A model generated the notes under the pieces. That model did no database searches. It worked only from the letters and a program-made list of their open reading frames with translations, and was not told the origin of the DNA. Shown here piece after piece: positions 25,961 to 27,639 of a DNA stretch of 64,000 nucleotides; the first letter of the stretch is position 1; every line of letters starts with the position of its first letter. This DNA comes from Escherichia phage L27, in sequence record LC473039.1; one strand, given 5' to 3'. The translations under genes and the position numbers were made by a program.

Positions 25961-27639
25961 GTCTTATCGAATCTCTATACAATCCTTTCCCTTTCCTTTC
26001 CAGAATCTTCCCACTGATTCAATAGAATCTATCTCATACCTTAAAAAGTAATAACTCTATAGCTTACTCTATAGCCCCTTATCAAATCAACTTAAATATA
26101 AGCCCATAACCCGAAAGGGAAGGGCAACCATTTAATTGGTATTGTTACCAATCCCTAAACGCTCTATAAAGCTCTATAACAGCCTTATCAACCTAACTTA
26201 AGGGATTGCATTAACTCACCCTTAAAAGCTCTTTACAGGGCTTTATAGAGGCTTAAAAGAATCTTATAAGGGTGTAAGCTTTACCATATCGTTAGTTCCT
26301 TGTGAATATCTATAAATGGCTATGAGATAGGACTCTATCGAATCCTCTTGTTAGTGTCTTAAAAGTATGTTATAGGGACTTAAAAGTTACTTCAAAGTTA
26401 CGTGAAAGAGGCTATAAAGTTACGTAAATGCTAGCCCCCTTAACATTTTCTTAACAATTTCTTAACAATCCCTACATAGTTATACTTGTTAGCCCCTTGT
26501 TAAATCTCTGTTAAGACCATGTAAAAGCCTTGTAAGAACCTTTGACATAGCCTTAAAAGCTCCTGTAAAGCCCTATAAAGAGCTATCCATACAGTTGAGG
26601 GGTAAATACTAGGGAGAGACTAAAAAGAACCTATAAAGAGCCTATAGAGAGCTTTTAAAAGGTATGTTTAAGGAATCACTAAGAAAGGGAAGGGAACGAT
26701 AAGAAAAGAGTAGTGACCATGTTAACAGCTTGTTAAAAAGATTAAACACTTGTTAGGAACTTGTTAATTATCTTAACAAAATAACCCTTAAAAATTAACT
26801 TCTTAGACCTTGTTAGATATCTGTTAAGCATCTGTAAAGACTATTCAGCAACTGTTAAGAAACTGTTACACCCCTGTTAGTTCTGTTAAGAATCTGTTAA
26901 GACCTTTGAAGAGTTGTTAAAAAGGTGTTAGAACTGTTAAGAGATTGTTAATGATATTTTAAGATTTTGCAAAGTACTTGTAAGGGAGCTGTTAAGGGCT
27001 ACCAAGCAGATATACATCCTAATCAGATATTTTTCAGTTCCTTCAAAGACCCTAAAAAATGACTTGATAGTCCTATTTTATAAAAATTTTAAAATTCTGA
27101 ATAATTACCTATACAGTCTTTCTAAAATACAGGTAGAAACAGGCTTATAAGATACCTTGTTAGTGCCGTGTTAGACCTTGTGAGATAAGGTCTGTAAAGA
27201 TATTCCTGTTAAGTTTGTTAAAACAGTCTATATAGAGGCTTAGTATTTCCTAGTGAACACCTATAGAGGGTATCATAGCTGACATAATGGGTTACTGTTA
27301 AGTAACACAGATAACCTAGAGATTAAGAGGTGTATAGGAGCTTCTAAGAGGGTATAGAGAGATGGTTAAGGTGATTGTATAGGTTGTTAAGAAGGCTTGT
27401 TAGAAGAATGTTTAGAAGGCTTATTAAAGGGCTAGTTAGAAGGGTTATACAGGGGGCTATTAAGACCACTAGATAATTACTAAGATACTATATAGTACTA
27501 TATAACTGTATATATATAGAGAGTAAGATTAAGAAGGTTGTTAAGAAGGATAGATATTTTATTCACATATGATGGTGACCCAGAGGTTGGGACAACCGAT
27601 AAAATTTTATAAAAAATATAAATTTCGTAAATTTTACTC
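25961..27639. repeat. ~1.7 kb ORF-free region dense in degenerate short direct repeats (CTGTTAAG/CTTGTTAG/TTGTTAA and CTATAAAG/CTATAGAG families) with a TA-rich stretch near 27480-27530
   Basis: No ORF >=60 aa on either strand; >25 repeat copies; bounded by convergent terminators. Confidence 0.6.

Follow-up and report, generated by a model that had tools for sequence, protein, structure and literature searches.

The region at 25961-27639 of Escherichia phage L27, a stretch without long open reading frames (ORFs) in the 64,000 nucleotides of record LC473039.1 analysed here (the window), is, with a probability of about 0.9, the terminal or concatemer-junction region of a Felixounavirus genome, as judged by comparison with relatives whose ends have been placed. 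Homology to these mapped relatives shows that the virion DNA would be linear, with an exact direct terminal repeat (DTR) of ~570 bp corresponding to 26432/4-27003/5. Because the ends of relatives map inside the gap, the window would display the junction form, consisting of a left flank, one copy of the repeat and a right flank. By the same homology, the unique DNA of the virion chromosome would open with the right flank (27004-27639) at the left end and close with the left flank (25961-26431) at the right end, ahead of the right-end copy of the repeat. The non-coding DNA before the first gene would amount to 1.0-1.2 kb at each virion end.

By its sequence, the window is that of a Felixounavirus, a Felix O1-like myovirus; positions 25900-27700 match 256 phage records at 86-88% identity, nearly all of them assigned to this genus. 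Felix O1 itself possesses the same unannotated gap between ORF23 and ORF24, and the Felix O1 genome paper inferred 'short terminal repeats' from genome size only and does not discuss the gap (PMC3185647). The function most likely served by the region is the recognition and cutting of concatemers by terminase. The explanation that joins this function to the terminal identity is, taken as a whole, very probable, and it is set out below together with its rivals.

Physical ends of related phages

Exact repeats at both record ends are found in PP892526.1 (581 bp), whose ends were set with PhageTerm (PMC11737134), and in OR863361.1 (613 bp), and both repeats map to 26434-27003 of the window. The annotated 618-bp 'DTR' of OL656108.1 (phage UAB_69) maps to 26432-27005, and the records of phages D4, SPJ41, BPS15Q2, pEP20, NJ12 and EcSzw_1 open or close at the same two positions. 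Two Erwinia phage records of the Kolesnikvirus type begin at the homologous base, their AGCCACTTTTACATTTCGTTAACAA corresponding to AGCCCCCTTAACATTTTCTTAACAA in L27. For phage UAB_Phi87, Bal31 digestion and run-off sequencing yielded a 608-bp DTR, with Bal31-sensitive SpeI end fragments of 4322 and 2819 bp (PMC4837284), and repeats of 581 bp (PMC8303462) and 613 bp (PMC6454146) have been published in the genus. An earlier note on this DNA, made from the sequence alone, had named a packaging or terminus region among several candidate roles, and the physical ends of close relatives reported in these three papers, all mapping inside the gap, bear that suggestion out.

A terminal repeat of ~600 bp is already known, having been published for the genus and annotated in at least one close relative, and is thus an expected feature. 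What appears to be new is the insulated 1.7-kb gene-free context in four genera, the inverted box at the repeat boundaries and the long arrays of 11-12 bp period, for which no description was found in the papers that were read. The gap is likewise left undiscussed in the Felix O1 and wV8 genome papers, the Danish wastewater phage paper and the PhageMaP paper. The anatomy of the region, with the terminators that border it, is as follows.

25937-25951, + strand: terminator-like hairpin with a T run, ending a + strand cluster of small early-type genes, the last of which is ORF23 (25647-25895)
25961-26431: left unique flank, with CTWTAAAG, CTTAAAAG and CTTTACAG units at a spacing of 10-11 bp, for example at 26221-26270 (5 units) and 26347-26419
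26432-26445, + strand: left boundary box TAGCCCCCTTAACA; the first base is G26434 in records with a repeat at each end and T26432 in the UAB_69 'DTR'
26432-27005: DTR by the UAB_69 annotation, 574 bp
26434-27003: DTR by the ends of records I14.1 and SeKF_63, 570 bp, present as one copy in the window (putative junction form)
26439-26469, - strand: three reverse units spaced by 11 bp, reading CTTAACA on the + strand and TGTTAAG on the other, just inside the left end of the DTR
26485-26660, + strand: mixed arrays of 11-bp spacing, in three sub-arrays
26485-26536, + strand: sub-array of CTTGTTAG, CTTGTTAA, CTGTTAAG and CTTGTAAG, 11-bp spacing
26552-26580, + strand: sub-array of CTTAAAAG, CTGTAAAG and CTATAAAG, 11-bp spacing
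26609-26652, + strand: sub-array of CTAAAAAG, CTATAAAG and CTATAGAG, 11-bp spacing
26799-26960, + strand: main forward array, ~15 YTGTTAAG units repeating every 11 bp; nowhere in the 64 kb is the 10.5-11.25-bp periodicity stronger
26890-26974, + strand: array core, the only DNA hereabouts that can be aligned to Kolesnikvirus (Erwinia and Salmonella phages of the phiEa21-4 type)
26990-27001, - strand: right boundary box TAGCCCTTAACA, inverted; the last base is C27003 in related records and A27005 in the UAB_69 annotation
27004-27639: right unique flank, where unique sequence begins past the left-end repeat
27144-27221: array in the right flank
27375-27465: array of 12-bp period, GGYTGTTAGAAG, in the right flank; its copy number differs among relatives
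27476-27530: TA-rich tract in the right flank, conserved in three genera
27594-27648: A+T-rich stretch in the right flank
27663-27649, - strand: terminator-like hairpin, ending a - strand gene cluster that begins with the ORF24 homologue (27678-28271)

The two boundaries of the repeat are marked by a box of the form TAGCCC(N0-2)TTAACA, which occurs exactly twice in 64 kb (0.02 copies expected), once at each DTR boundary and in opposite orientation. Each 26-nt boundary sequence has a single occurrence in the window. Both boundaries and the sequence just outside them, GTTACGTAAATGC on the left and AAGCAGATATAC on the right, are nearly invariant across Felixounavirus, Suspvirus and Mooglevirus, and AAGCAGATATAC is conserved in four genera, Kolesnikvirus included.

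Several of the database records met in this comparison deserve comment in their own right. PP892526.1 is filed under Tequintavirus, and its sequence is that of a Felixounavirus. GU169904.1, the 147-kb record of 'Staphylococcus phage SA1', includes this region of the Felix O1 type (88% identity), a sign that the record is chimeric or contaminated. The records of phages ekra, dune and BPS17W1 start within the 12-bp array (27361-27429) and not at the repeat boundaries, and these starts are probably assembly break points at tandem repeats.

A conserved and insulated gap

The gap lies between the last + strand gene, ORF23, and the first - strand gene, the homologue of ORF24. As the earlier note had it, there is no ORF of 60 or more amino acids in the region, the longest ORFs that overlap it being of 56 and 47 amino acids, and the convergent terminators that it saw at the borders are present as two hairpins facing each other; relatives have terminators annotated at the same place. 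A search for a strong promoter inside the gap found none. The region is transcriptionally insulated, in that transcription of the gene cluster on either side runs toward the junction and ends at the terminators. A gap of 1.45-1.74 kb without ORFs is present in Felixounavirus, Suspvirus, Mooglevirus and Kolesnikvirus; in phage Bas63 the homologous gap is at record positions 70493-72154.

Length, conservation and the want of long ORFs could also be read as the marks of one or more non-coding RNAs or of small proteins encoded in the region, and several database records annotate hypothetical proteins of 25-49 amino acids in the gap. This reading is very improbable. A check of reading frames in ten genomes found that all six gap ORFs of 30-56 amino acids are frameshifted or interrupted in relatives, and small or decayed genes were rejected on this ground. 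No match in the gap reached the gathering score of Rfam 15, and searches at E-values up to 1 returned four sub-threshold matches, of which three fall on the flanking terminators and the fourth, at 26903-26975, scores 21 bits where 60 are required. Folding of the terminal repeat gave z-scores of -0.54 for the + strand and -1.42 for the - strand. The Rfam searches and the folding of both repeat strands led to the rejection of non-coding RNA, and the precursor of such an RNA proposed in the earlier note thus finds no support, the more so as the terminators insulate the gap from both sides.

The region is as conserved as the genes beside it or more so, with between-genus identities of 71-83% for the DTR and its flanks as compared to 69-79% for the flanking genes. 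Against Kolesnikvirus, the sole alignable DNA is the core of the TGTTAAG array. Within an alignment of ten genomes, columns belonging to the general repeat unit CTNNNNAG are more conserved than other columns (0.871 vs 0.783), a difference not attained in any of 1678 circular shifts. In 9 of 9 sequences from Felixounavirus, Suspvirus and Mooglevirus, the number of units, the bias in their orientation and the 10-12 bp phasing are kept; in the Kolesnikvirus sequence these are weaker. The contrary outcomes named in the earlier note were intact genes in related genomes, or repeats absent or not conserved together with a lack of transcripts and protein binding; comparative alignment found related genomes without intact genes in the gap, and the repeats conserved.

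These data bear directly on the proposal that the repeats are a by-product of replication slippage in a dispensable spacer surrounding short true cut sites, the units themselves being functionless. Length differences among relatives are often steps of one unit, the copy number of the 12-bp and 11-bp units varying in steps of ~11-12 bp, and the arrays are degenerate (64% matches); both observations favour slippage. The greater conservation of motif columns than of spacer columns, the retention of array orientation and number across four genera, and non-coding DNA conserved to the level of its neighbour genes, with the array core alone alignable to Kolesnikvirus, nevertheless make this explanation improbable.

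Phased arrays and a proposed packaging account

The dense degenerate repeats described in the earlier note occur far more often than chance predicts. CTGTTAAG is present in 9 copies in the region as compared to 5 in the remaining 62 kb, and CTTGTTAG in 6 copies as compared to 1; reverse complements of either are absent within the region. Markov simulations predict 10.7 +/- 3.2 copies of the general unit CTNNNNAG, of which 56 are found, and 0.2 pairs spaced 10-12 bp apart, of which there are 21. A position weight matrix for YTGTTAAG returned 34 forward and 5 reverse matches in the gap (1.78 kb) and 86 matches per strand in the remaining 62 kb, with 12 consecutive spacings of exactly 11 bp. Tandem Repeats Finder reported a period-11 array of 12.8 copies at 26819-26951 with the consensus ATCTGTTAAGA, besides smaller period-11 arrays, and the strongest 10.5-11.25-bp periodicity of the 64 kb falls at 26400-27400. 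The second repeat family of the earlier note (CTATAAAG, CTTAAAAG, CTTTACAG) is present at 26055-26660, and the TA-rich tract is where that note had placed it.

In phages whose ends are exact repeats, each concatemer junction holds a single copy of the repeat; its boundaries are where terminase cuts, and packaging doubles the copy. On this model, replication of L27 would yield concatemers whose junctions are recognised by terminase, composed of the large subunit (TerL, 42877-44493) and a DNA-recognition partner. Cutting would take place at the two nearly invariant boundaries, where the TAGCCC(N0-2)TTAACA boxes, being inverted, would present an identical recognition geometry at both cuts, and packaging would duplicate the repeat as in T7-type phages. 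The oriented 8-bp units, of TGTTAAG and CTWTAAAG types and spaced by 11-12 bp, would lie on roughly one face of the helix and, by binding the recognition protein cooperatively at many sites, could mark the junction and give it its shape. The binding array for a phage DNA-binding protein envisaged in the earlier note is compatible with this anatomy and would form part of the preferred mechanism. The genes concerned are the following.

34631-35002, + strand: DUF5681 protein, 123 amino acids, with the N-terminal motif GQFKKGQSGNPSGRPKGS; candidate small terminase by gene position in distant homologues
42670-42870, + strand: conserved 66-amino-acid ORF, phrog_4397 (unknown function), ending 7 nt before TerL
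42877-44493, + strand: TerL (phrog_979, E 8e-234), the predicted boundary cutter
44501-45976: portal gene, following TerL

Three observations favour packaging: the arrays centre on the repeat, no DNA is more conserved than their core, and TGTTAAG arrays occur near terminase genes elsewhere. TerL of the Felix O1 type is reported to cluster with that of phages having terminal repeats (PMC4837284). A scan of viral contigs with the pattern TGTTAAG-N4-TGTTAAG-N4-TGTTAAG found intergenic arrays of 3-4 units at 11-bp spacing in five unrelated contig families outside Ounavirinae, and in four of the five a terminase gene lies 0.3-4.5 kb downstream of the array. In contig L083, a Terminase_2-like ORF is 320 bp from the array, and its TerL is 32% identical to that of L27; in L037, L072/L033 and L049, TerL or a module of small terminase (TerS), TerL and portal genes lies near the array. 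This association is suggestive of a packaging role. Further uncultivated contigs that bear arrays are L089, L046 and L073-L078, of which L046 groups with L072/L033 and L073-L078 with L049. Another, L090 (IMGVR_UViG_3300021399_000107, 165 kb), has a gene-free block of ~2 kb at 5766-7850, in which TTAACA units occupy the left side and GTTAAG or GTTAAA units, over 30 of them, the right side. Because L090 has no DNA relatives among cultured phages, its array cannot be placed relative to the genome ends.

A number of observations weigh against the account or narrow it. The ends of L27 itself are inferred from relatives, by way of identical boundary sequences, and at either boundary the end given by read-start analysis lies 2 bp from that of the UAB_69 annotation. 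When the homologous boundaries are placed on the UAB_Phi87 record, the nearest SpeI sites predict end fragments of 4435 and 2747 bp, which depart from the published lengths by 72-113 bp (2-3%) while indicating the same interval. The cut positions are offset by 4 nt relative to the box and lack mirror symmetry, and a general alignment of the two ends read inward scores no better than random segments of this repeat-rich region. The claim is for these reasons limited to the box; a longer terminal inverted repeat was rejected, only the box of 12-14 bp being significant. That the phased TGTTAAG and CTNNNNAG arrays are a multi-site protein-binding platform has somewhat less than even odds, and we infer its link to packaging; the probability that the terminase-neighbourhood association in the contigs arose by chance is ~0.01 by a rough estimate over five families. 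Moreover, because units like CTNNNNAG occur in other intergenic regulatory regions, for example at 34518-34620, the second motif family is not confined to the terminal region and may not be packaging-specific. In the divergent intergenic region that precedes the DUF5681 gene (34403-34630), two promoter-like TTGACA sites are found together with a series of CTTAAAAG, CTTATAAG and CTCTAAAAAG units resembling that family.

A different function for the same arrays would be that of replication-origin iterons, whereby an initiator binds the phased units and opens the TA-rich and A+T-rich tracts at 27476-27530 and 27594-27648. Such a role is compatible with a terminal one, the ends of T7 carrying secondary origins too, and the dense, oriented short repeats beside conserved tracts of this kind speak for it. 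Among the contigs, the TGTTAAG triplets of L083 lie between DnaA-box-like TGTGGATAA sequences and those of L037 next to TATATATA tracts, and L27 has one DnaA-box-like TTATTCACA at 27559. This box, however, is not conserved in relatives, and the 7 such boxes in 64 kb are within chance. Units of 8 bp spaced by 11 bp over ~1.5 kb are unlike typical iterons of 17-22 bp, no gene for an initiator, helicase loader or primase adjoins the gap (the flanking proteins are of unknown function), the GC skew merely tracks gene orientation, and the recurrent neighbour of the arrays in other phages is terminase and not replication genes. On balance, an origin is unlikely. Host-factor sites in general were rejected: apart from the one unconserved DnaA-like box, the gap has neither an IHF consensus nor a copy of GATC or Chi. 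GATC is in fact absent from both strands of 1-64000, where ~214 are expected from trinucleotide frequencies, and other 4-bp palindromes in the 64 kb are only mildly depleted.

Alternatively, the arrays might bind an abundant architectural protein of phage or host that coats ~1 kb of each genome end, protecting it from exonucleases or organising the DNA that is ejected first or packaged last, without any recognition by terminase. The long non-coding stretch preceding the first gene at each virion end would suit this, as would a phasing of 11-12 bp, which is appropriate for cooperative, filament-like binding. Chi (GCTGGTGG) has no copy in the window, and ORF23, the neighbour of the gap, was detected by mass spectrometry in Felix O1 virions (PMC3185647). 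Searches of Pfam, PHROGs and NCBIfam with ORF23 and the other flanking proteins found no DNA-binding domain and matched only families of unknown function, on which ground these proteins were rejected as readers of the repeats. With no protein tied to the motif, and with the arrays upstream of terminase genes in other phages left unexplained, end coating is quite unlikely.

As for the DNA-recognition partner of TerL, the DUF5681 protein is a candidate for the small terminase reported missing in Felix O1 in 2010. In two distant homologue families the DUF5681 gene overlaps the start of TerL, the classical position of a small terminase, while in L27 it lies 7.9 kb upstream of TerL, with a Ro60-like gene and a tRNA island between them. 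Its structure model is of low confidence (pLDDT 67.6) and found no match in the PDB, its sequence matched no solved structure, and no co-occurrence with TGTTAAG arrays was found among contigs outside Ounavirinae. As the reader of the arrays, DUF5681 was rejected on these three grounds, and the window encodes no homologue of the TerS-like proteins found in the contigs with arrays. The 66-amino-acid ORF might correspond to an N-terminal part that is fused in other phages, because the match of TerL to its PHROG profile begins only at position 81 of 642. A bolder version of the packaging account makes the oriented, 11-bp-spaced TGTTAAG units a recognition code, along which the partner of terminase (candidates being the DUF5681 protein and the 66-amino-acid ORF) would polymerise over tens of sites and so position the cuts at the inverted boxes. 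It is offered as a speculation that is probably wrong; if true, the code would represent a widespread, undescribed class of packaging signal, given heptamer arrays upstream of terminase genes in unrelated uncultivated phages and, in phage contigs of 165-169 kb, a gene-free array of 2 kb.

Felix O1-like phages are widely used in Salmonella and E. coli typing, biocontrol and therapy, and many of their records have been opened at arbitrary positions, with spurious small genes annotated in the gap. Ends at 26432/4 and 27003/5 would correct such annotation and show genome engineers which DNA to keep intact. The region is also a compact, conserved target for asking how a myovirus without a recognised small terminase finds and duplicates its ends, and the phased arrays and inverted box offer hypotheses that can be tested by mutation.

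Elsewhere in the window, a group I intron is found at 4673-4987 on the + strand (Rfam RF00028, 53.3 bits against a threshold of 50), overlapping the end of the ORF at 3524-4723. Four intergenic cassettes of ~100 bp (24040-24165, 24605-24730, 25200-25325 and 25535-25655) lie upstream of successive small + strand genes, each consisting of a promoter-like TTGACA/TTGCAA-N17-TAAATT, a GGGGAGGCAATAACCTCCC hairpin, and TAAACTAGGAGATTCAAAAATG with a ribosome-binding site and start codon. The Ro60-like RNA-binding protein gene (35083-36498) lies directly upstream of an island of 24 tRNAs (36664-42446), an arrangement shared with phage Bas63 (bioRxiv 10.1101/2024.10.10.617714).

Comparison with known systems

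The closest counterparts are the DTRs of other Felixounavirus phages, namely those of UAB_Phi87 (608 bp), UAB_69 (618 bp, annotated), Pr103Blw (581 bp) and Ro111lw (613 bp), which are homologous to the L27 repeat at 82-92% identity, share its two boundary sequences and occupy the same place between the ORF23 and ORF24 homologues. The reports on them give the length of the repeat only, and the 1.7-kb gene-free context, inverted box and phased arrays are not described in them.

Arrays with an 11-bp period are bound elsewhere by winged-helix or ribbon-helix-helix proteins, as at the pho boxes (CTGTCAT+4) and the 11-bp iterons of parC of plasmid R1. In both, a core of 7-8 bp and a spacer of 3-4 bp are repeated head to tail to give the 11-bp period, as in L27. 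The likeness is one of working principle only; the sequences are different, and these arrays act in transcription or partition and not at genome ends.

Multi-site packaging signals are known from P1 pac (seven TGATCA/G hexamers), the pacL and pacR boxes of SPP1 and the R sites of lambda cosB, where the cut site has several copies of one short motif around it, to which the recognition subunit binds cooperatively while the DNA is bent. The units of L27 are far more numerous (about 35-55) and extend over 1.5 kb. Small terminases are known for P1, SPP1 and lambda, whereas L27 has only the DUF5681 candidate; L27 is without GATC and hence without Dam-type control; and ends of the L27 type are exact repeats, in contrast to the headful or cohesive ends of P1, SPP1 and lambda.

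T7 has essential positions close to where its repeat ends (bioRxiv 10.1101/2024.10.10.617714). A search of the window for the heptamer ATCTGTT found 16 copies in 64 kb, two of them (at 26819 and 26892) inside the main array. At the concatemer junction of T7, ATCTGTT is a pause signal for the phage's own RNA polymerase in the processing of the DNA, and T7 has ATCTGTTAC at the end of its repeat. Because the Felix O1-like group is not known to have a single-subunit RNA polymerase, and because of the number of copies in the window, the two in the main array are probably a coincidence of the TGTTAAG unit. In overall design, T7 is like L27, possessing an exact terminal repeat of 160 bp (1-160) that adjoins a dense array of 7-8 bp units. 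This array (CCTAAAG, CATAAAG and CTTAAAG, at positions 175-340) resembles the CTWTAAAG units of L27, with a period of 13 bp in T7 as compared to 11-12 bp in L27; the T7 arrays lie mostly outside the repeat, whereas most TGTTAAG units of L27 lie inside it.

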